64,000 nt of DNA from Myxococcales bacterium. GTDB taxonomy: Bacteria; Lernaellota; Lernaellaia; Lernaellales; Lernaellaceae. The position numbers and the translations under genes are program-made. The stretch lies in assembly GCA_012517325.1 (NCBI GenBank), contig JAAYVF010000132.1:9665-73664 (forward strand). Direction: 5' to 3'. Numbering within the stretch: the first letter of the stretch is position 1; the number at the start of each line of letters is the position of its first letter. The notes under the pieces were generated by a model, which saw only the letters and a list, made by a program, of their open reading frames with translations, ran no database searches and was not told the origin of the DNA. This document shows positions 3,651 through 42,376 of this stretch, in pieces.

Positions 3651-3990
3651 GGTCCCAACTTCGGCAACCCGGCCATCTCGACAAGCGAGATCCGTCGGCT
3701 TTGCGTCCCCACCTCGCGGCGGGTTTGCCTTTATCGGTCGGGGAAAACGCGCGACTCATTTCGCGCGGTCCGCAACCGGATGTCTATTAATGGTTTCGAC
3801 GGCTCCGCGAAAAGACTTTACCTTTTTCCAAAAACATCACCGCTATTTTCACGATCCAACGTCCATTCATGGTTTGATCGTTGTATATTTACACCAGCGG
3901 TTGACCTTTTACTCGCCACATAATGGGCTTTAGCCACTACCGATCATATAGATATAATAGAATTCACGCGAAACAAAACGGGGATTTCAT

Positions 3991-11378: not shown

Positions 11379-11590
11379 GTAAAACTCCCCTTGTTTTTGA
11401 TAGTTGAAGCTGAATTTGACCGAACTATAGCATCCCGGAAAAAGAAGGGCAACGAAAACCAGCGGCATTTCCGGCCCACATGAAAATTTCCATTTGCAAC
11501 GCCGGGTTTTAACTTCGCTTTTTGTACGATAGGATTTGACAGCAAAAAATCGATGGCATATTCTGATTCGCCGATAACGTTTATCACAGG

Positions 11591-12229
11591 ATGGAGACAG
11601 CCATGCGGATCCGTAGTTTCATGATTGCGGTAGTGTGCCTTTTCATTTTCGCCGGATTAGCCGCATCCGCCCCGGTGGTGGATGAAAAGAAACCGGCCTT
11701 GGGCGCGCACTTCATGTACAGTTTCATTCCCGATTCGTTTCTGAGCATGGCCTATCAGGAACACACCTCGATTTCGGCCCTCGGCTACGGTGTCTGGGCT
11801 TCCTACGGGTTCACGCAATTCGACGCCCTCTTCCAGGTCAACAACTGGACGCTGATGATGGACGACGGCGCCTGGCGGGCGAACGGCGACAAGAAAAAAT
11901 ATCGCTACTGGATGGAAAACGACAACTTCGGCATGGCTGATTTCACGACTTCCATCCTCTGGAAGTGGCGCGTGCATCCGGCCGTCGAACCCTACGTCGG
12001 TCCGTCAATGGGCGTCGGTTTCCTTTACGGCCATTTGAAATCCTGGGACTCCAACGACGCCGGCAAACAGATCGGCGAGCCGACCAACAAAGAACTGCCG
12101 CCGGTTCTGCCGCTCGTCGGCTTCCTCGGCGGCTGCCGTTTTTACCCGGTGCCGAATTTCCGCATCTCGGCCGACCTTGGCTTTTACGCCGGGTTCGCCG
12201 GCGGTGTCAGCCTCGGTTACGCTTTCTGA
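11591..12229 (+). CDS. Outer-membrane beta-barrel-like secreted protein (alternative start 11603)
   Basis: It has a signal peptide (MRIRSFMIAVVCLFIFAGLAASA) and an alternating-hydrophobic, aromatic-rich sequence ending GVSLGYAF. Confidence 0.5.
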   Translation: METAMRIRSFMIAVVCLFIFAGLAASAPVVDEKKPALGAHFMYSFIPDSFLSMAYQEHTSISALGYGVWASYGFTQFDALFQVNNWTLMMDDGAWRANGDKKKYRYWMENDNFGMADFTTSILWKWRVHPAVEPYVGPSMGVGFLYGHLKSWDSNDAGKQIGEPTNKELPPVLPLVGFLGGCRFYPVPNFRISADLGFYAGFAGGVSLGYAF

Positions 12230-12232
12230 TCG

Positions 12233-12631
12233 ATGCTGAAAAAGCTAACCGTCCCGACGGCCAGCCGCGAACAATTTCTGGATATCACTCGTCAGGTACA
12301 GGAAGTCGTGCGTGAAGCCAGCCTGCAAAGCGGCACCGTCACGGTTTTCGTGCCGCACACCACCGCCGCGGTGACGATCAACGAAAACGCCGATCCCAGC
12401 GTGATCCACGATCTGCTGTTCGCGCTGGACCACGCCTTCCCCGACCACCGGCAATTCCGCCACGCCGAGGGCAATTCGGCGGCCCACGCCAAATCCAGCG
12501 TCGTCGGATGCAGCCTGACGGTCATCGTGGAAAACGGCCGGTTGGCGTTGGGAACCTGGCAAGGCATCTACTTCTGCGAATTCGACGGACCCCGGCAGCG
12601 GTCGTGTTACGTCAAATGCCAGGCCGACTGA
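12233..12631 (+). CDS. YjbQ/UPF0047 family protein (secondary thiamine-phosphate synthase-like)
   Basis: 132 aa. The motifs TGTVTVFVPHTTAAVTINENADP and HAKSSVVGCSLTVIVENGRLALGTWQGIYF match UPF0047. Confidence 0.7.
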   Translation: MLKKLTVPTASREQFLDITRQVQEVVREASLQSGTVTVFVPHTTAAVTINENADPSVIHDLLFALDHAFPDHRQFRHAEGNSAAHAKSSVVGCSLTVIVENGRLALGTWQGIYFCEFDGPRQRSCYVKCQAD

Positions 12632-12642
12632 GCGGCGGTTCG

Positions 12643-14376
12643 TCAATCCACGCGCGGTTTCGCCCAGACACCCCAGGCGCCGACCAGATCGCCGGACGGA
12701 TGCGGATCGGTCGACAACGCCAGGCTCACCGTGCGGCCGGCATACTCGGTCAGATCGACCGCCACCTCGTGCCAGCGGTTTTCCTCCGGGTTCGCCTTGG
12801 GATCGAGATACCGCGCGAAGCATTCATGGCCGTCGATTTCCACCTGAAAACGGACGCCTTTGCCGCCCCAACCCAAGCAAAGCGGGTCGAGGGCGATCGC
12901 GGCTGAAAAACGCGCGCCGGCGGGCACGAAAACCCGCCAAACGACCCGGCTGCGCGGATGGGCAAAGAGGCACAGCCGCTCGTCGCCGTCGATTTTCACC
13001 AGGTTCAGCCGCACCGGCTCATGGGCCAGTTCGCGCCCCACCCGGGCCGCGGGCAACTCGGCCAGCAGATCATACGAACCGAGCCGTTCCTTTTCCGCCT
13101 TGAGGCGCAGGGTCTCGCGGCGGAATTCCCAAAAGACTTCCTCCAACCGCTCGCGGCCGACCGCACCGGGTTTGAGGATCGATTTTTCGAAATAGGTCGG
13201 CCGGCCCGGTTGGTCGATCAGGTTTTCCGCCACGCAACGTCGATGCAGGCGCGTGCCCGGATAGGGATAGAAAATCGAGCACTGCGCGCCATTGGGCCGC
13301 AACTCACGGTGCAGGGCGAACAGGTCGCGGATCGTCTCCTCGGTTTCTCCGGGGAAGCCGACCATGTTGAAAGTCCAGGTCTGCAGGCCGATTTCGTCGC
13401 ACCAGCGGAAAACCCGGCGCAGGTCGTCGTTGCTCATGCGGCGGTTCAGCACCTCGGCGCGCAGGCGTTCGTTGCCCGCCTCGACGCCCGCCATCACCAT
13501 GTAACAGCCGGCGTCCTTCAGGGTCTGCAGAATCTCCCGCGTGACGGTCTGCACGTGGATGTAAATCTTGAAGGGGTACGAAAACCGTTCGCGGTACAGC
13601 GCGCAGAATCGCCGCACCCAATCGTGATCCAGGGTGAAGATGTCGTCCTCGAAAAAGATTTTGCGAAACGGGAGGTGCGCCGCGAGGTGGGCGACCAGGG
13701 CGATCATTTTTTCCGGGCGGCACATCCGCACGTACGGCCCGAGCCCCCGGTAGGCTTCACGGCGCGCGCTGTTGGCGCAATAGGCGCAGTCGAAGGGGCA
13801 GCCGCGCCCGCCCATGATGCCGATCTCGCCCAGCGCGTCGCGCAGAATTTCGTCGTGGTCCCACATCGCGCGGTCGTCGATCGGCAAGGCGTCGAGATCC
13901 GCGACCAGCGGCCGGCGCGGATTGCGTTCCACCGTTCCGTCGGGGCGGCGTTGCCACAAATTGCCGATACCGCCGGCCGGGCGACCGGCCTCGCGCGCGG
14001 CGCACCACTCGACGACGGCCGCCTCGCCCTCGCCGATGCAGACCACGTCGGCGAACGGCTCGCCGATCACGCTTTCCGGATCGAGGATCGCGTGAATGCC
14101 GCCGAACACGCAGGGCAGATCCGTCGCTTCCTTGACCCACCGAGCGTAACGCGGTGCGTCCACCCACTGATGAGTGTTGACCGGAAAAAACACGGCGTCC
14201 GGCGCGGCGGCGCGCAGCCGCGCGAGAAATTCGTCGCGCGCGAGGTGGTGGCGCAGGTAGAGCAGTTCGCTCGTGTGTCCCGCGCGCCGCAAGCAGGCAT
14301 CCAGTTGGCCGACGCCGTGATTGTAATGCACGTAATTGCCCGTCCCGGCATCGAGGTAGACCCACCAGATCTTCAT
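12643..14376 (-). CDS. B12-binding radical SAM enzyme with a ~150-aa C-terminal extension domain I do not recognise (paralog 1)
   Basis: An N-terminal Rossmann-like B12-binding region (MKIWWVYLD...) is followed by the radical SAM motif GCPFDCAYC. The C-terminal region (LFAHPRS...GVRFQVEIDG...WHEVAVDL...) is shared with the adjacent paralog. The start ATG overlaps the upstream stop as ATGA. Confidence 0.75.
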   Translation of the reverse strand: MKIWWVYLDAGTGNYVHYNHGVGQLDACLRRAGHTSELLYLRHHLARDEFLARLRAAAPDAVFFPVNTHQWVDAPRYARWVKEATDLPCVFGGIHAILDPESVIGEPFADVVCIGEGEAAVVEWCAAREAGRPAGGIGNLWQRRPDGTVERNPRRPLVADLDALPIDDRAMWDHDEILRDALGEIGIMGGRGCPFDCAYCANSARREAYRGLGPYVRMCRPEKMIALVAHLAAHLPFRKIFFEDDIFTLDHDWVRRFCALYRERFSYPFKIYIHVQTVTREILQTLKDAGCYMVMAGVEAGNERLRAEVLNRRMSNDDLRRVFRWCDEIGLQTWTFNMVGFPGETEETIRDLFALHRELRPNGAQCSIFYPYPGTRLHRRCVAENLIDQPGRPTYFEKSILKPGAVGRERLEEVFWEFRRETLRLKAEKERLGSYDLLAELPAARVGRELAHEPVRLNLVKIDGDERLCLFAHPRSRVVWRVFVPAGARFSAAIALDPLCLGWGGKGVRFQVEIDGHECFARYLDPKANPEENRWHEVAVDLTEYAGRTVSLALSTDPHPSGDLVGAWGVWAKPRVD

Positions 14377-27425: not shown

Positions 27426-28775
27426 ATGGAACGCCGATACGATCTGACCTCCGGACCGTTGATCCCGAGCATCCTGCGGCTCGCGGGCCCCGCCGTGCTG
27501 ATGATGCTCTTGCAGGGCGTGTACAATTACATCGACACCTATTTCGTCGGGTACCTGGGCGCCGAAGCGCTGGCCGGGATCAGCACCGGTGCGTTCATTC
27601 TCTGGATGACGTTTTCGCTGGCCAATCTGCTGGCAGTGGGCGCGGCGGCCAAGGTGGCGCGCCGCCTGGGCGAACGCAATCGCGTGGAAGCCGACCGGAC
27701 GGCCTTGCGCGGCATGATCTACGTCGTCGGCTGGGCCGGGTTGATCGGCGTCGTCTTGTATTTCGGCTCACCCCTGCTCTTTCGCCTGATGAACACGCCG
27801 GAAAAAGTCACCACGGACGGACTGGCTTTTTTAATGCCGCAAATTTACGCGATGCCGCTGGTCTTTCTTTCCTTTCTGGTCAACGGCATTTTTTCCTCGG
27901 CCGGCGACACGCGCAGCCCGTTCTTCATCATGTTTCTGAGCTTGCTGCTCAACGCCTTTCTCGACCCGCTGATGATCTTCGGCTTCGCCGGTTTCCCGGC
28001 GATGGGCATCGCCGGCGCCTCCTGGGCGACGGTGATCGCGCGGTTGGTCTGGCTTTACCTGACCTTGCGCAAACTGACGGCGACCGGCGGCGCGATCTCA
28101 CTGCGGGCGCATCGTCGGCTCGGCGCCGGTTGGCGGGATTTGCTGTCCATCGCCCGGATCGGCGCGCCGAAAACCCTGACCGGCGTCCTGTTCTCGGGCG
28201 TTTACATGGCGTTGACCCGCATCGCCGCCGACTACGGAACGCCGCAGATCGCCGCGCTGCGCATCGGCCACATCTACGAAGGCATTACCTTTCTTTCGTC
28301 GCTCGGCTTTTCCATGGCCGTCGGCGCGGTGGTCGGGCAGAACCTGGGCGCCGGCGATTCGCGGCGAGCGGCGAAAGCGGCGTGGAGCACCGCCCTGATC
28401 GTCGCCCTTTTTGCGGCGGGTGTGGGCGCCGCGTTTCGTTTCGCGGCCGTTCCGCTCGCCGGCGTCTTCAGTCTGGACAGCTCGGTAATCCATGCCGCCG
28501 CGGGATACCTCTTGATCCTGGCCTGGAGCCAGCCGTTCATGGCGGTAGAAATGGTCATCGAAGGCTGTTTTTCCGGCGCGGGCGATACGGTGCCGCCGAT
28601 GGTCATTCAATTGCCGTTGACCGTGCTGCGTTGGCCGGCGGCCTATTTCATGGCCTATCACACCAGTCTGGGCGTGGAGGGCGTTTGGTGGGCGATCAGC
28701 GGCTCGTCCATCTTGAAAGCCGTTCTGCTCGCCTGGTGGTTCCGCCAGGGCCGCTGGGTAAAAAAGAAGGTTTGA
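27426..28775 (+). CDS. MATE family efflux transporter
   Basis: 449 aa with about 12 TM helices. The N-terminus ILRLAGPAVLMMLLQGVYNYIDTYFVGYLG is typical of NorM/DinF-type MATE proteins. Confidence 0.8.
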   Translation: MERRYDLTSGPLIPSILRLAGPAVLMMLLQGVYNYIDTYFVGYLGAEALAGISTGAFILWMTFSLANLLAVGAAAKVARRLGERNRVEADRTALRGMIYVVGWAGLIGVVLYFGSPLLFRLMNTPEKVTTDGLAFLMPQIYAMPLVFLSFLVNGIFSSAGDTRSPFFIMFLSLLLNAFLDPLMIFGFAGFPAMGIAGASWATVIARLVWLYLTLRKLTATGGAISLRAHRRLGAGWRDLLSIARIGAPKTLTGVLFSGVYMALTRIAADYGTPQIAALRIGHIYEGITFLSSLGFSMAVGAVVGQNLGAGDSRRAAKAAWSTALIVALFAAGVGAAFRFAAVPLAGVFSLDSSVIHAAAGYLLILAWSQPFMAVEMVIEGCFSGAGDTVPPMVIQLPLTVLRWPAAYFMAYHTSLGVEGVWWAISGSSILKAVLLAWWFRQGRWVKKKV

Positions 28776-28797
28776 ACTATTTTCGGCAAATCCGCGG

Positions 28798-28827
28798 TTG
28801 ACAAATGCATCAATGTAGATATATAGT
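28798..28827 (+). promoter_or_regulatory. Sigma70-like promoter (TTGACA-N18-TATAGT) immediately upstream of the arsR-family gene; would give a near-leaderless transcript
   Basis: TTGACA is at 28798. TATAGT ends 9 nt before the ATG at 28837. No strong SD is visible. Confidence 0.4.
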
Positions 28828-28836
28828 ATATTCACT

Positions 28837-29142
28837 ATGATTGACAAAGAAAAAAGCACTTTATTGAATCCGCAGGTGGCGTACCGGCGTTCCGAAACGC
28901 TCAAGGCGCTGGGGCATCCGATCCGCTTGAGCATTGTCGAACTGCTCAATCAGCAGGAACACAATGTCGGCGACCTGGCGCGCGAACTGACTCTGGACAG
29001 TGCCATCGTCAGCCAACAATTGAAAATCCTTCGGATGTCGGGGCTCGTGCAATCCGAGCGGCGCGAGGGGCACAGCTTTTACCGGTTGGCGATTCCCCAA
29101 CTTTCGCGCCTGCTCGAGTGCCTGCGTTCCTGCGATCATTGA
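28837..29142 (+). CDS. ArsR/SmtB family transcriptional regulator
   Basis: LKALGHPIRLSIVELL...VGDLARELTLDSAIVSQQLKILRMSGLV is a canonical ArsR wHTH. Confidence 0.85.
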   Translation: MIDKEKSTLLNPQVAYRRSETLKALGHPIRLSIVELLNQQEHNVGDLARELTLDSAIVSQQLKILRMSGLVQSERREGHSFYRLAIPQLSRLLECLRSCDH

Positions 29143-29173
29143 AAAATCCGTTTTGACGACGGGATAGAAAAAA

Positions 29174-29263
29174 ATGAAAGACGCATTGCTGCCGATTCTC
29201 ATTCTCGCCCTGTGGCTGGCCTTGCAGTTGTGGATTCTCCCCGCACTCGGCGTCTCCACCTGA
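29174..29263 (+). CDS. Possible 29-aa hydrophobic micropeptide (MKDALLPILILALWLALQLWILPALGVST)
   Basis: A short ORF not in the supplied track. It is a single predicted TM helix with a weak GGGA SD. It is speculative. Confidence 0.25.
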   Translation: MKDALLPILILALWLALQLWILPALGVST

Positions 29264-29372
29264 CTGCGCTCGACTTGCAATCTCCCGGGCGGAGAGAAAA
29301 CGAAAGAAAACAACACCGGTTCCCTGCCGGCTGAAAGCCAGACCGAGAAACATGTGCCAGGGGTAAACGATC

Positions 29373-29579
29373 ATGCCGATTTATGAATACACCTGCGATG
29401 ATTGCGGCCATCGTTTTGAAAAACTGGTCCGTTCCGCCGATCCGGCGGCGCCGGCTTGCCCGAGTTGTCAGTCGGCGAAAACCCACAAGCAACTGAGCGG
29501 CTTTGTGTCGCGTTCCGGGAATTCGGTCGGCGGTGGAAGCAGCGCGGCACCGGCGCCTTCATCCTCACGTTTCACCTGA
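29373..29579 (+). CDS. FmdB-family zinc-ribbon protein
   Basis: MPIYEYTCDDCGHRFE...CPSCQS is the FmdB signature. Confidence 0.75.
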   Translation: MPIYEYTCDDCGHRFEKLVRSADPAAPACPSCQSAKTHKQLSGFVSRSGNSVGGGSSAAPAPSSSRFT

Positions 29580-29582
29580 GCG

Positions 29583-29625
29583 GGCAACTGCTGAAACCCG
29601 CGTGACGGGTTGCCGATTGTACTAT
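29583..29625 (+). terminator. Possible terminator hairpin after the fmdB-like gene
   Basis: GGCAAC...GTTGCC encloses a CCCG-cgtga-CGGG hairpin and is followed by a T-containing tract. There is no clean T-run. Confidence 0.3.
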
Positions 29626-30026
29626 CCGGCGTGATTCGGCTGTCATTCACCCAAGCTTATGAGTTCGGCGGAAAATGGACAATTCCATTTGGAATCCTCT
29701 AAAAAAATGGCAAATTTTTTCAATTTTAATGGTTTCCGGTTCTATATTTTTCCGTTTTGATTGATCCCAACCGCCCTATTTGGGAATAAAATCAAAATAA
29801 TTAGATCTAAGAGAATTCATGTTTTTTGCCACATTATCAACATGTTAGATCGCTTTTAGCTAGACTTACCCACGATCAATCCTCCAATTAAAAGGCATTT
29901 CAATAGAATGCCAAACTGAATAATACAGGCTTTCTTTTTTTTCTTGACAACTCATTCCGAATTATGCATACTCGGATTGTACAGAGTTGGTGAATTCGAA
30001 ACTAGCTTGTTTGTGAGGGAAGAGAA

Positions 30027-30503
30027 GTGATTCCGGTAAGTGGCAAAAAAGACGCATTCCAGAACTACCTTCGTTTCGTCAAGGTACGCCACTATCTGGA
30101 CATTATCTACTACGCGCAAAAAAAGCTGACGAAAGAAATCAAAAAGATCACCGGCATCAGTTTACGCGAAGTCAAGTTCCTGATGCAAATCAAACTCAAC
30201 CCCGGTTGCAGTTTGGTCAGCGTGCAAAAAAACCAATTCTTGCCGAGTTCCACCGCGGCCTGGCTGGCGGACAACCTGGTTCAAAAAGGTCTGTTGGCCC
30301 GCCGGCAAAATCCGAGCAATCGCCGCGAAGTGATCTTGGAACTCTCGCCCGAAGGCGAAAAATTGCTCGACCGAATCGACGTCCACTTCGTTACCCCCGA
30401 AGTGGAAAAACGGCTGGCGACGGCCAACGAACGACTGGTCGTCGTCATCGAGGATTCGCTGAAATCGCTGTGCTCCATGTACGGCGTCGAAATTAAAGAT
30501 TAG
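30027..30503 (+). CDS. MarR family transcriptional regulator (GTG start)
   Basis: The wHTH region is LREVKFLMQIKLNPGCSLVSVQKNQFLPSSTAAWLADNLVQKGLLARRQNPSNRREVILELSPEG. It has low GC compared with its surroundings. Confidence 0.7.
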   Translation: MIPVSGKKDAFQNYLRFVKVRHYLDIIYYAQKKLTKEIKKITGISLREVKFLMQIKLNPGCSLVSVQKNQFLPSSTAAWLADNLVQKGLLARRQNPSNRREVILELSPEGEKLLDRIDVHFVTPEVEKRLATANERLVVVIEDSLKSLCSMYGVEIKD

Positions 30504-30957: not shown

Positions 30958-32430
30958 TCAGCGAGCCAGCACCGGACGCGGATCCACGATGACAATGCCG
31001 CCGGCGGATAGCACCAGAAGACGTCCGTCGCCGTTGGGCGCGATGGAGCGAATCCGCCGGCCGACGAACAGGCGCCCGATTTCCCGCAACGACTCGCCGT
31101 CCAAGGCGATCAGGTCGCCGCGGAAATACGAACCGAGCCACAGGACTCGCGCGCTGTCATCCCAATAAAGGTTGCGAATCCCGCGATCGACCGGCACTTC
31201 GCCGAGCGGCGCCAGCGTGTCGGTCCGAAACACCTGGATCTTTTTTCCGGCCATGTTGCCGACGAACAAGCGCGCGGTCGCCGGATCGATGGCCAGCAGA
31301 TGAAACAGTCCCAGCGGCGATAATTCGGCCTGGCCGCGGATCGAATCGCCGGAGTATCGGCGAAGTTTTCCGGTCAGGGTCGAAAGGAAAAATCCACCGG
31401 CCGGATCGGCCAGCAGATCGCTGATCGGCCCGTCGTGCCAATCGCGGATCGCCAGCAGCCGCTGCGGTTCGAAAAGGCGCACCTGAGTCCACTCGTCGGC
31501 GACATAGATGCCCTCGCCGCCCCGTCGCGCGACCAGCGCGCCGCGCGCCAGTTTCTGCTGCTCGCCCAGGTCCATTTCCGGGGAAGACAACCGAGCGATC
31601 CGGCCGTCGCGGGTCGGTAGATACGCGTCCTTGGTTTCCGGATCGACGGCGAAATTATCGGCGGCGGGCCCGACGGGCAGTTGAACCGTTTCAAAAGGAC
31701 GCGCCAGAAATACGCCGCGATCGCCGCCCACCACCAGATCCCCGTAACCGTTGCGCTGGGCAAATCGCAGGTCGGTGCCGAAACGCCCGACGAAAGCGGC
31801 CGCTTTCCGGTTCCAGGCCAGAATCGTCTCCACGCCCGGCCGTTCGCCGATTCGCGACAGGCGGATATCCGTCCCGTGATAGAAGAAGTCGTTGGCTCCC
31901 ATTGCGGATGCGGCCAGAAAGAACACGAGGAACAGCGGCTTGCCGATCACCGCCAGGCGATCGGCATAGATCGTCAACAGCAGCAGCGTCAGGCCGGCGG
32001 CGGTCGCCAGCGCCATGACTTCATCCGAGGAAAGCCGCGCCTCGGTTGCCACGAAAACGAGGGCCGATAAAACCGTGGCCGCGATCAAACCGGCGATCGG
32101 CGTCAGATCCCGGCACACCAGCCAGAAAATCGCCAGACAGGCCAAGCCGATCACCAACCACAACCCAATGCTGAAAAAGGCGACCAGCACCCAGCTCAGG
32201 AGAGCCGGCACACTCACCGCGATGAAATAGCCGGCGAGGACCGCACGCCGCACGGAACGGCCCGGCAAGTTCAGCCGCCAGGAACGCGCGACACCCACCG
32301 CCGCCGCCCCGATGGTCAGCGCGGCCCAGACCGGCCAGCCCGCCAACGGCGCGACGAACAAACACAACAGCCCATGAACCAGCAGCCCGGTCAGACCATC
32401 GAGCAGCAACCAGAGCGGATGCGTTTTCAT
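30958..32430 (-). CDS. Polytopic membrane protein fused to a C-terminal beta-propeller-like domain (paralog A)
   Basis: There are about 6 N-terminal TM helices. The C-terminal half has repeated G..I.V.D / LY..D motifs suggesting a propeller. Confidence 0.55.
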   Translation of the reverse strand: MKTHPLWLLLDGLTGLLVHGLLCLFVAPLAGWPVWAALTIGAAAVGVARSWRLNLPGRSVRRAVLAGYFIAVSVPALLSWVLVAFFSIGLWLVIGLACLAIFWLVCRDLTPIAGLIAATVLSALVFVATEARLSSDEVMALATAAGLTLLLLTIYADRLAVIGKPLFLVFFLAASAMGANDFFYHGTDIRLSRIGERPGVETILAWNRKAAAFVGRFGTDLRFAQRNGYGDLVVGGDRGVFLARPFETVQLPVGPAADNFAVDPETKDAYLPTRDGRIARLSSPEMDLGEQQKLARGALVARRGGEGIYVADEWTQVRLFEPQRLLAIRDWHDGPISDLLADPAGGFFLSTLTGKLRRYSGDSIRGQAELSPLGLFHLLAIDPATARLFVGNMAGKKIQVFRTDTLAPLGEVPVDRGIRNLYWDDSARVLWLGSYFRGDLIALDGESLREIGRLFVGRRIRSIAPNGDGRLLVLSAGGIVIVDPRPVLAR

Positions 32431-33923
32431 GGCGATATTCTCGCGGCGATCCGCTCGAGGTTCAAGCGAAAGACCCCCGCGGCGCTGACGCCGAGGCAGT
32501 GGTCGCCGTCCATCGTCAAATCGCGGACCCGCCGCCCCACCGGCAAGCGCACGGGTTTACCCGGCGCATACGGCCGATAGACCCAAACCTCCCCGGTGAA
32601 ATAGCTGCCGCCCAAAAGTAATTGCCGTGGCCGATCGTAGGCCAGGCAGCGCACGCCGTAAGGCGCCGTCAACTTCGCCACGAGCGTTAGATCCAGCGGG
32701 TCCAGCACCCGAATTACCGCCCCCAACCAATCCGACAAAAACAAGCGCTCATGGTCGGAATCGTAAACCATGGTTCCGCCGACGCTGGTCGGCAAAGCCA
32801 GACGGCCGCGCACGGCCAAGGTTCCCGGCTCGAGCATTTCGACGCCTCCGAAGAGGCTGGAGCGATACAACGAATGGGTTTCCGGCACGAACAACAGGTC
32901 GATATTGATTCCCGTCCGCCGCTCGACCAGCGGATCGAGGCCGGGCAATCGCAGCACCGTCAGCAAGTCCGTCCGCCCCATGGCAAAAGCGCGGCGCGTC
33001 GTCGGGTCGGCCTGCACCTTAAGAATCGGTTGGGGAAGCATCAACCGGCGCGGTTCGCCTTTGGCCGGTCGCCACACCACCTCCCCGTTTCGCAAACCGT
33101 AGAACAAAGCCTCCTCGGCGGTGCAGGACACCAATAAATTATCGCCCGCCGGCGCATGCTCCACTTCCAGCGGGGGCTTCGCCAGCCGTTCCAATCCGGG
33201 CTGATCGGCGCTGCCCAAGAGCAGTTCGCCGGCGCAATCGCGCACCGCGAAGCGCAGGTCGGCGCCGTTTCGCACCGGCGGCAAGGTCGCGGGATCGGCG
33301 GCGGAGTAAAGGAATTCGACGTCCGGATCGGCCTGCAGCGAGGTTTCCGGAAAGCGATAAAAAGCGGTGAGGACGAAAATCGTCGGCGCCAACAGAATCA
33401 ACACGGTGAAATCGAACCGACGCGCCCGATGGACCTCGCCCGTGGCGAAGAGCCAGGCGATGCTGCCGAGAAAAACGGCCCCGAATAGCAAGCGCGCCGC
33501 GTCCGCGGCGAGCAGCGGTTCGCGCCAGACCGCCAGCGCCACCGCCGCCGCGAAGGAACCGTAGGCAACCCATTGCCGCTGATTTTTTTCGAACGCCCAG
33601 CAGCCGACTCCCGCGAGCGCGACGACTCCCGCCAGCAGCCAGCGATCAACCAGCAGCGCCAGCAACAGGACGCCGGCGGTGAATCCCAACACCCAGAGGC
33701 GGTAGAGCCCCGCGGCCAGGCGGGACAGGATTGGATGGTCGACGCGGATTTCCGTCCGCCGGAAAACCGCGACCAGGACGATCGGCGGGATGAGCAAAGC
33801 CAGCGGCGTCCAGATCGCCGCCAATCCCGAATAGGCCAGCGCCAGAGGGAAATGGTAGATCAGGTAAAGGCCGACCGCCGCCGGCGGCCAGCGAAATATT
33901 TTTCGCCGCGCGGATGAAGTCAT
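32427..33923 (-). CDS. Polytopic membrane protein fused to a beta-propeller-like domain (paralog B)
   Basis: Same architecture as paralog A, with a 4-nt ATGA overlap with A. Confidence 0.55.
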   Translation of the reverse strand: MTSSARRKIFRWPPAAVGLYLIYHFPLALAYSGLAAIWTPLALLIPPIVLVAVFRRTEIRVDHPILSRLAAGLYRLWVLGFTAGVLLLALLVDRWLLAGVVALAGVGCWAFEKNQRQWVAYGSFAAAVALAVWREPLLAADAARLLFGAVFLGSIAWLFATGEVHRARRFDFTVLILLAPTIFVLTAFYRFPETSLQADPDVEFLYSAADPATLPPVRNGADLRFAVRDCAGELLLGSADQPGLERLAKPPLEVEHAPAGDNLLVSCTAEEALFYGLRNGEVVWRPAKGEPRRLMLPQPILKVQADPTTRRAFAMGRTDLLTVLRLPGLDPLVERRTGINIDLLFVPETHSLYRSSLFGGVEMLEPGTLAVRGRLALPTSVGGTMVYDSDHERLFLSDWLGAVIRVLDPLDLTLVAKLTAPYGVRCLAYDRPRQLLLGGSYFTGEVWVYRPYAPGKPVRLPVGRRVRDLTMDGDHCLGVSAAGVFRLNLERIAARISP

Positions 33924-33953
33924 GGGACCTACATTACTCAGGACGCCGTAAAT

Positions 33954-34700
33954 TTATTTGGGAAGGCCGGCCAGCAGTTTCTTCGCCAAAGCCTGGTCGT
34001 CGGCCAATTCACGCTCGAAACCGGGCATGGGCTTGAGCGCGATCACCTTTTCGCAAAGTTGTTTCGCCTCGCCGTACTGCTTCTCGGCGATCAGCACCTC
34101 CGCCAGACTGACCAGGGTCAGGGAGTAATCGGGCGCGTAGGTCAGGCTCTTGCGCAGCAGCTTGATCGCTTCCTGGTTCGAGGCGACCGGACTCTTGTAT
34201 AGGATCATGCCCATCGCCCGATCCGGACCGCCGAAAAAGTAGGTCGGATTCAGAACGGCCGCTTTTTTCAGATGGCTCTCGAGATCGTTCTTGCTGCGCA
34301 TTTTGGTCATCACGCTTTTGTCTTCCAGGCTTTTCGCCAGACAAGCGGAGTACCAATAATGGCTGCCGGCATGGCCGGAATCGGCGTCAAAACCTTTTTT
34401 CGCCGCATCCATCCCCTGTTGATAAATCGCTTCCTTTTGCGCGGCCGGCGCAAAGCGGCCCAGGAAATAATAGCCGCGCGCCATGGCGGCGAACGCCTCG
34501 GCGAGCTTGGGATCCGCCGCGCCCGCCTGACGGTAATAGTCGATCGCCTGTCGCGCGTGGCTGTCGCCGGACGAACGCAGCAGCCATTCGGCATCGCCCT
34601 TTTGCATCCATTCGCCGGCGGTTTGCGCCCACGCCATCGCCGCCAGGCCCAGAACGAGCGCCAGAACCGCCGCGCCGAAACCGCCTTTTACCTTTGCCAT
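33954..34700 (-). CDS. Secreted tetratricopeptide-repeat (TPR) protein
   Basis: Signal peptide MAKVKGGFGAAVLALVLGLAAMAWAQ. Helical repeats carry the TPR W-LG-Y / A-F-P pattern. Confidence 0.6.
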   Translation of the reverse strand: MAKVKGGFGAAVLALVLGLAAMAWAQTAGEWMQKGDAEWLLRSSGDSHARQAIDYYRQAGAADPKLAEAFAAMARGYYFLGRFAPAAQKEAIYQQGMDAAKKGFDADSGHAGSHYWYSACLAKSLEDKSVMTKMRSKNDLESHLKKAAVLNPTYFFGGPDRAMGMILYKSPVASNQEAIKLLRKSLTYAPDYSLTLVSLAEVLIAEKQYGEAKQLCEKVIALKPMPGFERELADDQALAKKLLAGLPK

Positions 34701-34721
34701 CGCCGTCCGTTTCCCCGTCGT

Positions 34722-37406
34722 TCAAGTCGTTTTTTGGCTTTTCAGGCGGAATTCTATGCGGCTGAGCGATTCGCCGGCCGTCTTGATCCAGTCCTTTTTC
34801 TTCTTGCGCATCTGCATCGGCACCAGCAGCGCCCCGAGAACGAAGTTGCCGCCGACCCGGATGAACCGGCGCAGGGCGGCGCGCGATTTTTCGCGCCCGA
34901 TGGCGCCCGCGGCTTTCAAGGCGGCGACGCGCAGATCGTCGTCCTCGGTGAAAATCTTGCCGATCGTTCCGGTCATGCGGTAATGAGCCGCGCCGCTCAG
35001 CAGGTTTTCGGCTTCCTCGCCGCCGATCCGGCCCAGGGCGTTGACCACCGGAATCCGCAGGCGCGGCTCGGCGTAAAACAGGTCGACCAGCGCCGGCAGA
35101 TCGTCCGGCCCGCCCATCTGGCCGAGAATATTGATCGACGCCTCGGCGACCACCGGATCGCTGTCGTGCAACCGCATCTTGGCCAGCAGCACGCCCTCGT
35201 TCTGATCCAGCTTGGCAATGGCTTCGATGACCTCGGCGCGGATGCGCGGATCGTGGTCGTCGGAAATGCTGCGCAGCAATTCCAGATCGCGCTTGCTGCC
35301 CAGCCGCGACACCAGTTCGATGCAATTGCGCGCCACGTAGTACGAGTCCTCGGTCAACTCGCCCTCTTCCCGCCGCCGCTGGAACTGCATCGGATCGCCG
35401 AGGTGCTTCAGTTTCCAATTGCTGACCAGCAGGGTTTTTTCGCCGAGCGTCGTCAAAATCTGATAGGCGCGGTTGCGCAGGCTGCGTTGCGGGCTCTTGA
35501 AAAAGTCGAGCAGTTCGCTGATCACCTTTTCGGTGCCGAGCACCTCGAGAATTTTCATCGCGTTGTCGATCTGGGTCATGTTGTCGCCTTCCATCTCGCG
35601 GCCGAGAGCCTGGATGATCTCGGCGGTGGAGACGGCGACTTTCATCATTTCGCCCAGTTCGCATACGGCGCGGGTGTAATCGTCCTTCTTTTCGGCCGGC
35701 AGGTTGTCGAGGTAATTGACCATGTTGGACACGGAGCGGACGATTTTCAGCGCCGGCGCGTATTTGCCGTTGAGCACAAGATAGCGCGTCAGGTTGCCAA
35801 AGGTGTCGAACAGGCGGCTGAGCACCTCGGTGTCGCGCTCCTTGTTCCGGAGGCGATCGGTGAGGCGGTCGATGATCGCCACCAGGCTCGTTTCCTTGTT
35901 GCGGCTGATCGCCAGTTCGGCCATTTTTTCGATATTTTCGAGGGTGCTGATGCGCTGGTCCGGCCCGCCCTTGCCCAGGTCCTCGAGCAGTTGCTCGATC
36001 ATCTTGCGCGCCGAGGACCAACTCATTTCCTCGCGCAGGCCCGTCTTGGAGAACACCGCCGCCTCGGCCAGGTCCGGATCGAGCGAAAGGATCATTTGCG
36101 CCAGGCTGCGGCGCGCGTTCTTGTCTTTCGCCATGGATCCCGACAGCATTTCCTTGATCATCGAACCCAACTCGGCCGGGCTGAGCTTGTCGATATCGCC
36201 CGATTGGATTTTATTGATGACCTCGGCGAAGACGACGTTGGAAATCAGTTTTTCGTCGGCGCCCAGGTTGTCGGTTTCTTCGTGGTCGGAGGAAATGATG
36301 CCGTAGCGGAACTGGTCGACCATGACGTGGCTGACGCCCTTGCTTTCGAGGATCGCCTTGACGCCGCCTTGTTTTTTGATCTGCGCGTCGGTCTGCGCGA
36401 AGATCATCAGGAAGGCGCGCACTTCCTCGAGCGAGATGCCCCGCTTCAGGGTCATGGCGTTGACGTTGCGCTGCTCCAGGGCGGTCAGAAAATCCTCGAG
36501 GAATTTTTCCTTTTTCTTGATCTTGATGTCTTCGATCAACAGGTCGCCGCCCAGGCGGGTCAGGGTCAGGCCTTCGCGGCCCTGCATCGCGTTTTCGATG
36601 GTCGCCAGCAGGCTTTCCAGCGCCGCCGAGACCGACGGGTGATCGGCGCTCTGGTACATCTGGGTCGTGCGCAAAAGCAGGTTCAACCGCTTGATGATGT
36701 TGGTGCCGAAGCGGACCAGGACCGCGTCCGACAGCCGGGCCTCGCCGGCGCCGCCGGAGCCCGAGGAAGCCAGGATCGAGCCGGTCTGGTACTGTTCGAC
36801 CAGCGAATCGGTCAACAGCATTTCAAAAATGACGCCGTCCTTGCTTTGAAAATCGGCTTCCTTCAACTGCTCGATCAGCATGTTCCAATACGCTTTGCCG
36901 TAGACGTTCAGATCGACCTTGATTTTTTTCACGTTCAGCTCGGGGTCGCCGAGCAGCCGCTGGATCAAATCGGTGGCCGAAATCCGTAGGGCGGGCAACC
37001 CTTCCTCCTGCACCCGGTCGCGCACGAGGTAGAGCAATTGAAACAGCATCGCCGCCTTGGCCTTGAGCAACTTGACGATCTTGTCGTCCAGGCCGCCGAT
37101 CTGCTCGGCGATATCGGCCAGTTCCTTGTATTTTTCCGAGCCCTTGAAGGTGAAGAGATATTGGCCGACCGTCTTGCGGCCCATCACCTTGTTGAGCACC
37201 GGCAAATCCATAAACAGCAACAGTGCCTTGGCGTAGCCGAGGTCATCGAGCGCCTTTTTGGATATTTCGTGCCAGATTTCCGCTACTTGTCGAACCGAAG
37301 TCTTGCTGAACGCGTTGTTGATAATCTCGGCCTGACGTTCCGGTTCCGCGGTTGAGGAGATGGAAGCGATCAATCGTTTGAGATCGAGATTTTCGTCAGC
37401 GATCAT
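34722..37406 (-). CDS. Large (894 aa) cytoplasmic alpha-helical protein with C-terminal HEAT/PBS-lyase-like repeats
   Basis: The C-terminal repeats are DPRIRAEVIEAIAKL, DSDPVVAEASINILGQMG and RLRIPVVNALGRIGG. The remainder is helical with no catalytic motif I recognise. Confidence 0.55.
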   Translation of the reverse strand: MIADENLDLKRLIASISSTAEPERQAEIINNAFSKTSVRQVAEIWHEISKKALDDLGYAKALLLFMDLPVLNKVMGRKTVGQYLFTFKGSEKYKELADIAEQIGGLDDKIVKLLKAKAAMLFQLLYLVRDRVQEEGLPALRISATDLIQRLLGDPELNVKKIKVDLNVYGKAYWNMLIEQLKEADFQSKDGVIFEMLLTDSLVEQYQTGSILASSGSGGAGEARLSDAVLVRFGTNIIKRLNLLLRTTQMYQSADHPSVSAALESLLATIENAMQGREGLTLTRLGGDLLIEDIKIKKKEKFLEDFLTALEQRNVNAMTLKRGISLEEVRAFLMIFAQTDAQIKKQGGVKAILESKGVSHVMVDQFRYGIISSDHEETDNLGADEKLISNVVFAEVINKIQSGDIDKLSPAELGSMIKEMLSGSMAKDKNARRSLAQMILSLDPDLAEAAVFSKTGLREEMSWSSARKMIEQLLEDLGKGGPDQRISTLENIEKMAELAISRNKETSLVAIIDRLTDRLRNKERDTEVLSRLFDTFGNLTRYLVLNGKYAPALKIVRSVSNMVNYLDNLPAEKKDDYTRAVCELGEMMKVAVSTAEIIQALGREMEGDNMTQIDNAMKILEVLGTEKVISELLDFFKSPQRSLRNRAYQILTTLGEKTLLVSNWKLKHLGDPMQFQRRREEGELTEDSYYVARNCIELVSRLGSKRDLELLRSISDDHDPRIRAEVIEAIAKLDQNEGVLLAKMRLHDSDPVVAEASINILGQMGGPDDLPALVDLFYAEPRLRIPVVNALGRIGGEEAENLLSGAAHYRMTGTIGKIFTEDDDLRVAALKAAGAIGREKSRAALRRFIRVGGNFVLGALLVPMQMRKKKKDWIKTAGESLSRIEFRLKSQKTT

Positions 37407-37724
37407 AGCAGCCTCCCGGATCGGTGTCCGTCGGTTGGTTGGCCCAATGGCGCGTGTTCTCGATGCTAAATAGTAAGGGCTGTTATTGTCAACTTATCGT
37501 CATCAAATACTTGGAAAATTTTTTCAGCCGTTTTATTTTTTCAGTATGGCATTTCGGCGGCGTAAATACCAGCGAGCGGGGAAATGAGCCGGGCGAAGGC
37601 GATCCCGATCATCCACGAAGGCCGCCGGTTGAGGCTTGTTTACAAAATCCGGTTCTGGTGCTAAATCCAACGTCCTGTTTGATCCCTTCCGCGGGATCAA
37701 GAAGAAAACGGGTATTTACCGGAA

Positions 37725-38924
37725 ATGATGAGCCTTTTGATCCTCTGTCTGCTGACCGCCGGGTTTATCGGCTTTGGCGTGGTCGAGCGGGTTTTCCATC
37801 AGCGCAGCCTGGCCGCGGTCCCGACCCGCATCCACGTCAGCGGCACGCGCGGCAAATCGAGTGTCACCCGGCTCATCGCCTCGGGATTGCGCGAGGCCGG
37901 CATCGTCACCGCCGCCAAGACCACGGGGACGCTGGCCCGGATGATTCTGCCCGACGCGCGCGAAGTACCGATCTTCCGTCCCTCCGGGCCGAACATCATC
38001 GAGCAGACGCGCATCATCGCCGCGGCCGCCGATATGGGCTGCCAGGCCCTGGTCATCGAATGCATGGCGCTTCAGCCCGAGTTGCACTGGCTGAGCGAAA
38101 ACAAACTGATCCACGCCACACACGGCGTGATCACCAACGCCCGCGCCGACCACCTGGACGTCATGGGGCCGACCGAGGTCGACGTCGCCAAGACCCTGGC
38201 CAGCATGACGCCGGTCGGCGGCGTCCTCTACACCGCCGAGCAGCGCCACCTGGATATCCTGCGGGAAGCGGCGGCCGACCGCAGTACGCGCCTGGTCGCC
38301 GTCGACACGGCGGACATCGCGGCGATCACCGACGAGGAAATCGGCAAATTTTCGTATACCGAGCACAAGGAAAACGTGGCGCTGGCCTGGAAGGTGCTGG
38401 CGGACCTGGGCGTCTCGCGCGAGGTCGCCTTCCGGGGAATGTGGAAAACCAATCCCGATCCCGGCGCGCTCAGCGTGTCGACGGTCGATTTTTTCAAGCG
38501 CCGCATCGTCTTCGTCAACGGTTTCGCCGCCAACGACCCGGAGTCGACCGAGCGCATCTGGCGGCTGGCGCGGCAACGCTACCCGGAGATCAAACGCGCC
38601 GTGGCCGTGTTCAATCTGCGGGCCGACCGCGTTTCACGCACCTCGCAGATGGCGCAGGACACGACGTTCTGGCACGAGGCCGACGCGGTCCTGTTGATGG
38701 GCACCGGCGCCTATCACTTCGCGCGGATGGCCGCCAAGACCGATTACGACACCGGCGAATTCATCTTCGCCGATCAATTGGAAGTGGACCAGATCTTCGA
38801 AAGCATCGTGGAAGCGTGCACCAGCCCGGTCACCCTGGTGATCGGCATGGGCAACATCGGCGGCCAGGGACTGCCGCTGGTCCGGTATTTTAAAAACCGC
38901 GCCTTGCCTGGAGAAATGTCATGA
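37725..38924 (+). CDS. pgsB: Poly-gamma-glutamate synthase PgsB/CapB (Mur-ligase-family amide ligase)
   Basis: An N-terminal TM helix is followed by the P-loop HVSGTRGKSSVTRL, then ECMALQPE, NARADHLDVMGPT and FVNGFAANDPEST. This is collinear with Bacillus PgsB. Confidence 0.8.
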   Translation: MMSLLILCLLTAGFIGFGVVERVFHQRSLAAVPTRIHVSGTRGKSSVTRLIASGLREAGIVTAAKTTGTLARMILPDAREVPIFRPSGPNIIEQTRIIAAAADMGCQALVIECMALQPELHWLSENKLIHATHGVITNARADHLDVMGPTEVDVAKTLASMTPVGGVLYTAEQRHLDILREAAADRSTRLVAVDTADIAAITDEEIGKFSYTEHKENVALAWKVLADLGVSREVAFRGMWKTNPDPGALSVSTVDFFKRRIVFVNGFAANDPESTERIWRLARQRYPEIKRAVAVFNLRADRVSRTSQMAQDTTFWHEADAVLLMGTGAYHFARMAAKTDYDTGEFIFADQLEVDQIFESIVEACTSPVTLVIGMGNIGGQGLPLVRYFKNRALPGEMS

Positions 38925-39367
38925 CCGACATTCTGTCGCTATCGGTGGGCATCGGCCTGGTCGTGGGCATGCTGTTCACCGAATTGTTCGGGATCGCCTC
39001 GGGCGGCCTGATCGTGCCCGGCTACATCGGCCTGTACATGACCAAGCCCTGGGACGTCGCGGTCACGATCGGCGTGAGCTGCCTCACCTTCGCCATCGTC
39101 CGCACTCTCTCGTCGTTTCTGATCGTCTACGGGCGGCGGCGTTCGGCGTTGATGATCCTGATCGGCTACATCATCGGCTCGATCATCCGCAGCTTCGCCG
39201 ATTTGCCGATCGAGCACCTTTCCGTCATCGGCTACGTCATTCCCGGCCTGATCGCGATCTGGATGGACCGCCAGGGCGTGCTGCAAACCATGGCCTCGCT
39301 GATCATCGTCTCCACCATCGTGCGACTGATTCTGGTCATTGCCGTCGGGACGGAGTTGCTGCCATGA
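38921..39367 (+). CDS. pgsC: Poly-gamma-glutamate biosynthesis membrane protein PgsC/CapC
   Basis: 148 aa with 4-5 TM helices. GLIVPGYIGLY...YGRRR...VIPGLIA matches PgsC. It overlaps pgsB by 4 nt. Confidence 0.75.
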   Translation: MTDILSLSVGIGLVVGMLFTELFGIASGGLIVPGYIGLYMTKPWDVAVTIGVSCLTFAIVRTLSSFLIVYGRRRSALMILIGYIIGSIIRSFADLPIEHLSVIGYVIPGLIAIWMDRQGVLQTMASLIIVSTIVRLILVIAVGTELLP

Positions 39368-40601: not shown

Positions 40602-41501
40602 ATGAGCCCCGCGCGATCCAAGACCAAGGCGCGACTGATGGAAGTCGTCACGCCCCACAAACCGGTCAACGTCCAGTTGACCGACCTGGATCTCGAGGAC
40701 CAACTGCGCGGCGAAAAAGCTTCCTCGCTGTTTCTCGGGCAATTCGAACTGGAACGGATTCAAGGCGCCCTGGAGCGTTTCGGCATCACCGAACAACTGC
40801 ACAAGCTGGGTTACGCCGAGATCGAGGCCGAGTTCCACGCCCGCAGCGCGTTCGAGCATTTTCTGCGCATTTTCAGCCGGGAACAGCACGACAAGGTGCT
40901 GCTCGGCGAAATCATCCTGAAAGAAGGCCACTACACGCCGCGCGCGCCGGCACTGCCGGATTTCACGCTGCCGCCACTGGACGTGCTGTCGATCGAGTGG
41001 ATCCTGATGCAGCACGTGCGCGGCCAGTTCACGCCCAATCACCGCCGCCTGCCCGGCCAGAACCATCCGGGCCTCGGCCTGGGCCACAAGGTGGTGGATC
41101 TGCTCTTGTGGGTCACGCATCTGATGGAAAAGGAAGCGCTGATCAACATGCCCGAATATTTCCACAACGCGCTGTTCTACGACCGCTGGTTCAAGTTCTA
41201 CGATCCGCGCGTTCAGGGCACGATGCAGGCCGTGATCCGCGACCTGGCGGCGGCCGGCTACGACCTGGCGGACATGTCGTACGCGGCTTATTTCAATTGC
41301 CTGCTCAACAGCAAAACCGGCGAGCGCTTTTGCTGGCAGCCGCAGGAACAACTGCTGGCCATGTCCGAACCGGCCCGGCACTATCTCGAACACCCCGATT
41401 ACGCGCGGCTGGTGCGCGAAACGAGCGAAGCCCTCTCTTTCACCGTCGATGGCGCCTTGTTCATGGAAAAGATCGCCAAGGCCGATCATCTGGAGTGGTA
41501 G
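40602..41501 (+). CDS. Hypothetical protein (no family I recognise)
   Basis: 299 aa, soluble. It is tightly followed (5 nt) by a radical SAM gene. Confidence 0.5.
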   Translation: MSPARSKTKARLMEVVTPHKPVNVQLTDLDLEDQLRGEKASSLFLGQFELERIQGALERFGITEQLHKLGYAEIEAEFHARSAFEHFLRIFSREQHDKVLLGEIILKEGHYTPRAPALPDFTLPPLDVLSIEWILMQHVRGQFTPNHRRLPGQNHPGLGLGHKVVDLLLWVTHLMEKEALINMPEYFHNALFYDRWFKFYDPRVQGTMQAVIRDLAAAGYDLADMSYAAYFNCLLNSKTGERFCWQPQEQLLAMSEPARHYLEHPDYARLVRETSEALSFTVDGALFMEKIAKADHLEW

Positions 41502-41506
41502 GATTC

Positions 41507-42376
41507 ATGGAATACGAAGGCATGGTGATCCGCCCCCCGAGCGAGGCCCGCTCGCTGATTTTGCAGGCGACCTTCGGGTGTAGCCACAACCGCTGCACCT
41601 TCTGCCCGACCTACAAAGGCACCCGCTTCCGCATCAAGGACGAAGACCGCCTCTTCGCCGAGATCGACGAGATGGCCGCCCTGCGGCCCTGGCGCCGCGT
41701 GTTTCTGGCCGACGGCGACGCGCTGATCATCCCCCAGGCGCGGCTGGTCCGCATCCTGGAAAAACTGCGCGGGACGATCCGCGGCCTGGAACGCGTCGGC
41801 ATCTACGGCAATGCGAAATCCGTCGAAAAGAAAAGCGTCGAGGAACTGCGCGAACTGCGCCGGCTCGGCCTGGGCATCGTTTACTTCGGCCTGGAATCGG
41901 GCGACGACGACACCCTCGCCTTCATCGGCAAAGGGAAAACCGCCGCCGAGATGATCGCCGCCGGCCGGCGGGTGAAGGAATCCGGGATCGAACTGTCGAT
42001 CACGGTGCTGCTGGGCATCGCGGGCGGGCGTTCGCGGGAACATGCGATTCATACCGGCCAGGTGCTCACGGCGATCGACCCCGATTACGTCGGCGCCTTG
42101 ACGGTGATGGTCGTCCCCAACACGCCGCTGTGGGATTTGCAGGAAAGCGGCGCCTGGACGCTGCCCGACGAATTCACCTCGCTGGAGGAACTGGCCCTGA
42201 TGCTGGCCCACACCGAAATGACGCGCGGCCTGTTCATGAGCAACCACGCCAGCAACTATCTGCCGATGCGCATCGCCATGCCGCACGAAAAAGAAGCCGC
42301 CCTCGCCGAACTGCGCGACGTGCTCGCCCGCCGCGACCGCTCGGTGCTCAAACCCGAGTGGTGGCGAGCGCTGTAG
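41507..42376 (+). CDS. Radical SAM protein (B12-independent), subfamily unassigned
   Basis: The start was trimmed to MEYEGMVIRPP. The motif is GCSHNRCTFC. The supplied ORF's long N-terminal extension was rejected. Confidence 0.65.
   Translation: MEYEGMVIRPPSEARSLILQATFGCSHNRCTFCPTYKGTRFRIKDEDRLFAEIDEMAALRPWRRVFLADGDALIIPQARLVRILEKLRGTIRGLERVGIYGNAKSVEKKSVEELRELRRLGLGIVYFGLESGDDDTLAFIGKGKTAAEMIAAGRRVKESGIELSITVLLGIAGGRSREHAIHTGQVLTAIDPDYVGALTVMVVPNTPLWDLQESGAWTLPDEFTSLEELALMLAHTEMTRGLFMSNHASNYLPMRIAMPHEKEAALAELRDVLARRDRSVLKPEWWRAL

Follow-up and report, generated by a model that had tools for sequence, protein, structure and literature searches.

We analysed a stretch of 64,000 nucleotides (contig JAAYVF010000132.1, positions 9,665 to 73,664), referred to as a whole as the window, which contains four consecutive minus-strand genes, here named G1 to G4. 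Their predicted products are a large cytoplasmic multidomain protein (G1), a secreted relative of the lipid-binding TatT and BstC proteins (G2) and two paralogous inner-membrane proteins with a beta-propeller (G3 and G4). ENA metagenome contig ERZ928041 k127_215024 is identical to the window, and the relatives are metagenome-assembled genomes (MAGs) labelled fen_1099 and Ca. Lernaella stagnicola. The contig is assigned to the uncultured candidate phylum Lernaellota (= FEN-1099), whose description in PMC9324843 rests on MAGs and depicts an outer membrane. The features of the locus are listed in Table 1.

Table 1. Features of the G1-G4 locus and of its surroundings (positions are those of the window).
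Feature	Position	Strand	Length or protein region	Description
G1	34722-37406	-	894 aa	cytoplasmic, multidomain
G1 helical domain			aa 9-135	AlphaFold2 (AF2) model
G1 small alpha/beta domain			aa 144-207	AF2 model
G1 domain X	36267-36728	-	aa ~227-380	mobile domain, ~140 aa
G1 compact domain			aa 227-365	AF2 model, within domain X
G1 low-confidence linker			aa 367-426	AF2 model
G1 HEAT/ARM alpha-solenoid	34728-36119	-	aa ~430-893	AF2 model
G2	33954-34700	-	248 aa	predicted secreted, TatT/BstC superfamily (TPR-like)
G3	32427-33923	-	498 aa	inner membrane, seven transmembrane (TM) helices and propeller
ATGA overlap	32427-32430	-		G3 stop/G4 start, predicted translational coupling
G4	30958-32430	-	490 aa	G3 paralog, same architecture
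Candidate sigma-70-like promoter	37463-37492	-		TTGACA-18-TAGCAT, ahead of G1; consensus match only
Antisense open reading frame (ORF)	34272-36989	+	905 aa	covers most of G1
pgsB	37725-38924	+		divergent from G1; membership in the system not shown
pgsC	38921-39367	+		neighbour
TIGR04332	39364-40509	+		neighbour, 'poly-gamma-glutamate system protein'
U299	40602-41501	+	299 aa	neighbour without family match; membership not shown
Radical-SAM protein	41507-42376	+	289 aa	neighbour, weak partial HpnJ-like match
MATE efflux transporter, ArsR/SmtB and MarR genes	27426-30503	+		convergent to G4
c-di-GMP-I-GGC riboswitch aptamer	3659-3738	-		Rfam RF03167, 66.6 bits (gathering threshold 59)
ORF after the riboswitch	2112-3650	-	512 aa	weak DUF4185 match only

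The arrangement of the genes suggests that G1 to G4 are organised as one transcription unit behind one sigma-70-like promoter candidate. G1 and G2 are separated by 21 nt and G2 and G3 by 30 nt, G3 and G4 overlap by 4 nt, and no terminator-like sites were found between the four genes. A GGGAGG ribosome-binding site is located 8 nt ahead of the ATG of G1, and the candidate promoter, a consensus match alone and no proof of function, lies inside the 318-nt divergent intergenic region common to G1 and pgsB. Given that all four have conserved homologs, G1 to G4 are considered real genes. The 905-aa ORF antisense to G1 was taken for a shadow ORF of high-G+C sequence, since HEAT matches and 18 homologs back the G1 frame. 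A preliminary description of this DNA had reported a co-directional, operon-like arrangement, which was recovered here, and had assigned G1 to the cytoplasm, G2 to the periplasm and G3 and G4 to a membrane; our predictions agree, the membrane being the inner one. It had recognised no catalytic motif, and no enzyme family was found for G1-G4 in Pfam, NCBIfam or PADLOC.

With regard to G1, no TM segment and no signal peptide were found, and its AF2 model, built from a 19-sequence alignment (pLDDT 80), comprises five regions (Table 1). The C-terminus is an ordinary HEAT solenoid, in which PBS-lyase-type HEAT_2 repeats are recognised at aa ~683-855 (HEAT_2, 1.1e-19); alphaRep structures also match. 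It is in this region that G1 resembles the PBS-lyase HEAT-like proteins, such as CpcE/F, NblB and the alphaRep designs. In contrast to these proteins, the recognisable repeats make up only the C-terminal fifth of G1, and its N-terminal ~430 residues, which comprise the helical domain, the alpha/beta domain and domain X, have no counterpart in them. The match to the NblB model NF045915 reaches 43.7 bits for a cut-off of 300 and is confined to aa 726-805, and is therefore not full-length. The 894-aa HEAT scaffold of the preliminary description is thus indeed cytoplasmic with PBS-lyase-like HEAT repeats, but the solenoid occupies only the C-terminal half of the protein, which also contains domain X. 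In an exhaustive HMMER search with a single-sequence query (G1 aa 1-680), the full-length G1 family was found to exceed Lernaellota, with about 30 cluster representatives at E<1e-30. Members are 866-1091 aa long, with identities down to 24%, and one of them comes from a Ca. Fermentibacteria MAG.

The same search returned 414 cluster representatives at E<=1e-3. The matches listed for proteins other than those of the full-length G1 family align through the region of domain X, which is usually N-terminal in these proteins and has the consensus ..YP..HP....ltl.v..g.Llv....Fa..L..R.I.SitF..Glt.eEl..Fl....GG....l...Gi.hI..ne..Y. Among 29 isolated copies, no consistent match to Pfam-A was found, the profile of the domain gave no credible relative among PDB sequences, and a word-index profile search returned almost no matches. 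The N-terminal domain of HD-GYP proteins, DUF3391, was considered and rejected, as its four strands followed by two helices conflict with the succession of elements predicted for domain X. In a census of 70 proteins, domain X was fused to HEAT_2 repeats in 45, as it was in most of 20 proteins scanned one by one, and to HD_5/HD-GYP in five, to which P0088 can be added. It also occurs together with MshEN and a T2SSE ATPase (P0067, P0083, P0124) and with a Ser/Thr kinase domain (Pkinase; P0097, P0100, P0157), and its further partners include GGDEF, DUF4388, cNMP-binding plus PilZ, PAS-HisKA-HATPase and the receiver domain (REC). This set points to an input or interaction domain of signal transduction, with a cyclic di-GMP (c-di-GMP) flavour. 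As the other partners of domain X are signal-transduction modules, G1 is probably more regulatory than structural. No report was found when the literature was searched for HEAT-repeat proteins tied to c-di-GMP. Domain X appears to be a new domain of about 140 aa and is a candidate sensory or receptor domain.

Elsewhere in the window, a c-di-GMP riboswitch aptamer lies directly upstream of a 512-aa ORF (Table 1). Given this riboswitch, the organism probably uses signalling by c-di-GMP or a related dinucleotide.

G2 has a predicted Sec signal peptide (aa 1-25, cleavage AWA|Q), and in 10 orthologs the signal peptide closes with AxA, the next residue being Q, D or N. No lipobox was found in G2, and there is no cysteine at the cleavage site in the 10 orthologs. 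G2 contains the motif of its family, HYWY...L(D/N)PxFyfGGPxRxlG, and the full-length family profile matches Es_TatT (8G52, 1.8e-15), BstC (7T1S, 2.5e-12) and RMD3 (7CC7, 2.7e-8). As a control for generic TPR similarity, a profile of the non-canonical middle segment alone was used (aa 86-172, 87 positions); its best natural matches were again 8G52 (independent E-value 2.3e-8) and 7T1S (1.3e-8), each as a single co-linear stretch. The motif YWY...LDPxFyxGGPxRxlG is common to this segment, Es_TatT and BstC. The Pfam family TAtT (PF16811) is touched weakly by three of the 10 orthologs (best E=3e-4). These similarities, which go beyond generic TPR similarity, identify G2 as a predicted secreted, divergent homolog in the TatT/BstC superfamily (TRAP T-component; PF16811, IPR038537).

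All three characterised TatT members bind lipids, which are held in a hydrophobic cavity: 8G52 is the Enhygromyxa TatT with bound palmitate, BstC binds sterols and Tp0956 prefers long-chain fatty acids (PMC11713862, PMC10942540). By analogy, G2 is a likely binder of a ligand (lipid) and not a plain TPR adaptor; the preliminary description, which had proposed such an adaptor, was right as to a secreted, periplasmic, TPR-like protein. Like the TatT and BstC proteins, G2 is predicted to be periplasmic and all-helical, and at 248 aa it is similar in size to the BstC chain (258 aa). Its genomic context is of the non-TRAP kind, as for the approximately 25% of TatTs with genomic partners unrelated to TRAP (PMC11713862). 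In contrast to TatT, it is exported by a Sec signal peptide and is not a lipoprotein, and, unlike the TatT and BstC systems, the operon has no TRAP (P, Q, M), BstA or BstB partner. BstA, the partner of BstC, is an RND protein. Neither the operon nor the rest of the 64-kb window was found to contain a TRAP or RND gene. At three other loci only, an MMPL/Patched/sterol-sensing RND gene is located about 5 kb downstream of the cluster (L006, 17839-20157; L007, 18213-20522; L009, 21806-22670); as it is absent from the window, this gene was rejected as an operon partner.

G3 and G4 share 27% identity, in line with the tandem paralogs initially described. In G3, seven TM helices (aa 14-190), starting from a cytoplasmic N-terminus, are followed by the propeller (aa ~200-488), which in the AF2 model (pLDDT 87) is a seven-bladed YncE-like beta-propeller. 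Across 17 family members, the predicted cytoplasmic loops contain 178 lysine and arginine residues and the periplasmic loops 14, consistent with seven TM helices that lead from a cytoplasmic N-terminus to a propeller in the periplasm; the preliminary description had left the side faced by the propellers to topology prediction. For the 7TM domain, searches of Pfam, NCBIfam and PDB sequences gave no match. G3 and G4 have no Pfam match at E<=1 beyond noise, and among PDB sequences the similarity of their profile to YncE (3VGZ), a representative of the YncE/YVTN propellers, is marginal (E=0.042). Whereas YncE is soluble, the propellers of G3 and G4 are anchored by a seven-helix membrane domain and, unlike YncE, belong to a paralog pair with overlapping genes. 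This 4-nt overlap, ATGA or GTGA, is kept in all eight loci with both genes and has a purine-rich site upstream. G3 and G4 are thus predicted to be translationally coupled, and the conserved overlap speaks for their production in stoichiometric amounts and is compatible with a heteromer. A heteromeric unit, as suggested initially, is plausible.

The loci, which had been collected by looking up encoding contigs and by scanning genomes and metagenomes, were compared by tblastn and with hidden Markov models. At 14 distinct loci of the Lernaellota type, the gene directly after G1 is G2. Among these are the most divergent loci, L003, L013 and L017, with 40-43% G1 identity and none of the other genes that flank the pair in the window. 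G1 and G2 overlap by 4 nt in Ca. Lernaella stagnicola. Both G3 and G4 stand behind G1-G2 in the window, L008, L009, L011 and L012/L023, and both are also present in L022 and L026, where the upstream sequence ends early. G3 is present before the contig ends in L024, L025 and L027, and L006 and L007 have a single gene, which is of the G4 type. A 501-aa membrane protein of L004 matches the G3/G4 profile in the propeller region only (E=7e-10). G3/G4 homologs were never found away from G1-G2, and in a reciprocal metagenome scan G1-G2 lay upstream in all four loci with upstream sequence. The dependency is therefore one-way: G3 and G4 come with G1-G2 and G2 comes with G1, whereas G1 can stand without G2, and G1-G2 without G3 and G4. 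On this gene-content comparison, G1-G2 is a stable core and G3/G4 are restricted to a subclade, so that the uniform conservation of all four genes expected in the preliminary description was not found.

Among the described systems for motility, secretion, polysaccharide export and defence, and those of the Tol-Pal/BAM kind, none was matched; a mapping to a well-known system, which the preliminary description had named as a refutation, was thus not found. Pfam and NCBIfam gave no system-level assignment for the four proteins, and the PADLOC-DB defence models gave two marginal HEAT-type matches for G1 (16 bits) and none for G2-G4. Among the Tol-Pal, BAM, exopolysaccharide and type IV pilus models (TolB, CpoB, BamB/D, PilW, Tgl), none reached its threshold and G3 and G4 had no match; the hits of PilW (27.9 bits, cut-off 154) and Tgl (24.2 bits, cut-off 225) in NCBIfam reflect one generic TPR motif. 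The unit resembles the envelope scaffolds Tol-Pal (TolB/CpoB), BAM (BamB/BamD) and the exopolysaccharide TPR scaffolds (AlgK/PelB/BcsC/PgaA) in that periplasmic TPR-like proteins and propellers are encoded together, in its envelope location and in that no enzyme is evident. In contrast to these systems, the operon has no TolQRA, Pal, BamA or synthase, its propellers are fused to a 7TM domain and a large cytoplasmic HEAT protein belongs to the unit.

We tentatively propose that G1 to G4 encode a lineage-restricted envelope module which handles a lipid or another hydrophobic ligand and is coupled to a cytoplasmic signalling scaffold. This proposal is supported by the operon structure, the adjacency of G1 and G2, the linkage and overlap of G3 and G4, the predicted topology, the homology of G2, the partners of domain X and the riboswitch. 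G2 would carry the hydrophobic ligand, a lipid or a lipid-like envelope component, through the periplasm, and the G3/G4 heteromer would be its docking or translocation partner in the inner membrane, in place of the TRAP or RND proteins that serve other TatT-family proteins. The HEAT solenoid could serve as a binding platform for the cytoplasmic loops of G3 and G4, which are short and basic, or for other partners, domain X would act as a sensing or interaction domain, and G1 would couple the unit to intracellular signalling, possibly through a nucleotide second messenger. The flow could correspond to import, export or outside-in sensing.

Several observations weigh against this module. At 36.4 bits for a cut-off of 350 in the curated BstC model NF045602, G2 is a divergent superfamily member and not an equivalog, and it lacks the lipoprotein anchor of TatT. 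The cytoplasmic loops of G3 and G4 are 6-14 aa long and offer little surface for the binding of G1, and no ligand is known for domain X. G2 is missing beside G1 in L004/L005, L006 and L016, and no G3 or G4 occurs within 4-9 kb downstream of G2 in L013, L015 and L017. The distant relatives of G1 (24-29% identity; L019, L020, L021, L028, L029), which come from a Fermentibacteria MAG and from unclassified MAGs and three of whose five loci are mutually syntenic, have no G2, G3 or G4 at the locus, so that G1 can work without them. Finally, the unrelated MarR-ArsR-MATE genes downstream are also syntenic in most close relatives, as is the U299-radical-SAM pair upstream in close relatives; part of the conservation of gene order is therefore shared ancestry, and much of the local order is inherited rather than selected for function.

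An operon of convenience is about equally likely as the envelope module, and no less tentative: G1 would be an autonomous cytoplasmic signalling or adaptor protein of the X-HEAT superfamily, with which G2-G4, as unrelated periplasmic or membrane proteins, are merely co-transcribed in this lineage, and no trans-envelope complex would exist. The five loci of other lineages without G2-G4 and the synteny of general neighbours fit this explanation, as does the fact that Lernaellota can dispense with each of G2, G3 and G4 at one locus or another. G1 is also the best-conserved component of the operon by far, with a mean column identity of 63% across the family. What speaks against it is the adjacency of G1 and G2, with tight or overlapping junctions, in the three divergent loci that share no other flanking gene with the window, and the fact that G3 and G4 were never observed away from G1-G2.

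Rather unlikely is an outside-in sensor, in which G3 and G4 would be 7TM receptors whose periplasmic propellers detect an extracytoplasmic cue, G2 would present the ligand and G1 would relay the signal to effectors of the c-di-GMP type or others. Domain X does hold the usual sensor or input position in HD-GYP, histidine-kinase, GGDEF and Ser/Thr-kinase proteins, G3 and G4 combine 7TM with a large periplasmic domain, and the operon encodes no enzyme or energy-coupling component. However, G3 and G4 have short loops and no cytoplasmic signalling domain, G1 has no recognisable output domain, and no gene for a kinase, a cyclase or a regulator accompanies the cluster consistently, the MarR and ArsR genes being convergent and merely syntenic.

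It is improbable that G1-G4 are accessory to a poly-gamma-glutamate (PGA) capsule or slime, moving, anchoring or regulating the PgsB-PgsC-TIGR04332 polymer across the diderm envelope by analogy with the TPR scaffold and second-messenger receptor of synthase-dependent exopolysaccharide systems: although the two units are divergent around the 318-nt promoter region in the window, and also in L006 and L007, surface-polymer genes recur near G1 and Lernaellota MAGs were reported to make PGA (PMC9324843), no pgs gene stands beside G1 in L003, L004, L008, L009-L013, L015-L017, L023 and L024, G1-G4 have no match to Pgs/Cap family models, and the specific relatives of G2 bind lipids and not polyanions. 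The co-location with pgsBC is thus not consistent, as pgs genes adjoin G1 only in the window, L006 and L007.

Returning to the envelope module, its parts are of known kinds (a divergent TatT-superfamily protein, YncE-like propellers and a HEAT solenoid), in an arrangement which is undescribed; what is new is their combination, together with domain X and the 7TM anchor. If the proposal is true, lipid carriers of the TatT family, with TRAP and RND as their known membrane partners, would gain a third kind in G3/G4, and the operon would give a first functional handle on the envelope biology of the uncultured Lernaellota. That it is the founding example of an undescribed trans-envelope system for lipid handling or signalling, with a TatT-type carrier, a heteromeric 7TM-propeller pair replacing TRAP/RND and a controlling cytoplasmic scaffold whose domain X is a new, widespread sensor or second-messenger receptor, is a more doubtful claim. 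Should the unit be a loose co-transcription unit, the finding would be an ordinary one: four hypothetical proteins of common repeat folds. The operon is real, but its significance is limited by an inferred function, a narrow family and common folds. Of all the results, domain X is the one most readily carried over to other systems, whatever the function of the operon.

With regard to the neighbouring genes, no pgsA was found in the PgsB-PgsC-TIGR04332 operon of the window. At nine distinct loci the U299-radical-SAM pair is divergent from G1, whether or not pgs genes separate them. The surface-polymer genes near G1 comprise GT2/GT4 (L008), a PglD-like protein and a CMP-sugar synthetase (L016), and ALGX (L003 and the window); their recurrence is suggestive but not specific.

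The genes beside the distant G1 relatives often encode exported proteins, namely a C25 peptidase, a lipoprotein with a YVTN propeller and a TPR-containing lipoprotein, although this pattern is weak. The lipoprotein downstream in L029 was rejected as a G2 homolog (hhalign probability 0.2%). In L020, a 918-aa lipoprotein with a C-terminal YVTN/YncE-type propeller (10755-13511) follows the distant G1 relative P0042 (27% by tblastn); it has no BLAST similarity to G3/G4, and this pairing of G1 with a propeller may be an independent recurrence. A secreted, gingipain-like Peptidase_C25 is encoded near G1 genes in L008 (7624-9717), L019 (14816-16774), L021 (13370-15385) and L028 (9725-11767), and in the Fermentibacteria-like lineage of the last three it is followed by a VIT-VWA protein. 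A link with this peptidase was rejected, as L019, L021 and L028 represent a single syntenic lineage, to whose proteins that of the Lernaellota locus L008 is only 22-25% identical; the association may be due to chance. Lastly, a gene for a PALP (pyridoxal-phosphate-dependent) enzyme directly follows G2 in L009 (13540-14631), L017 (13615-14652) and probably L025 (3421-4561); the L009 copy separates G2 from G3, in a cluster that is otherwise intact.

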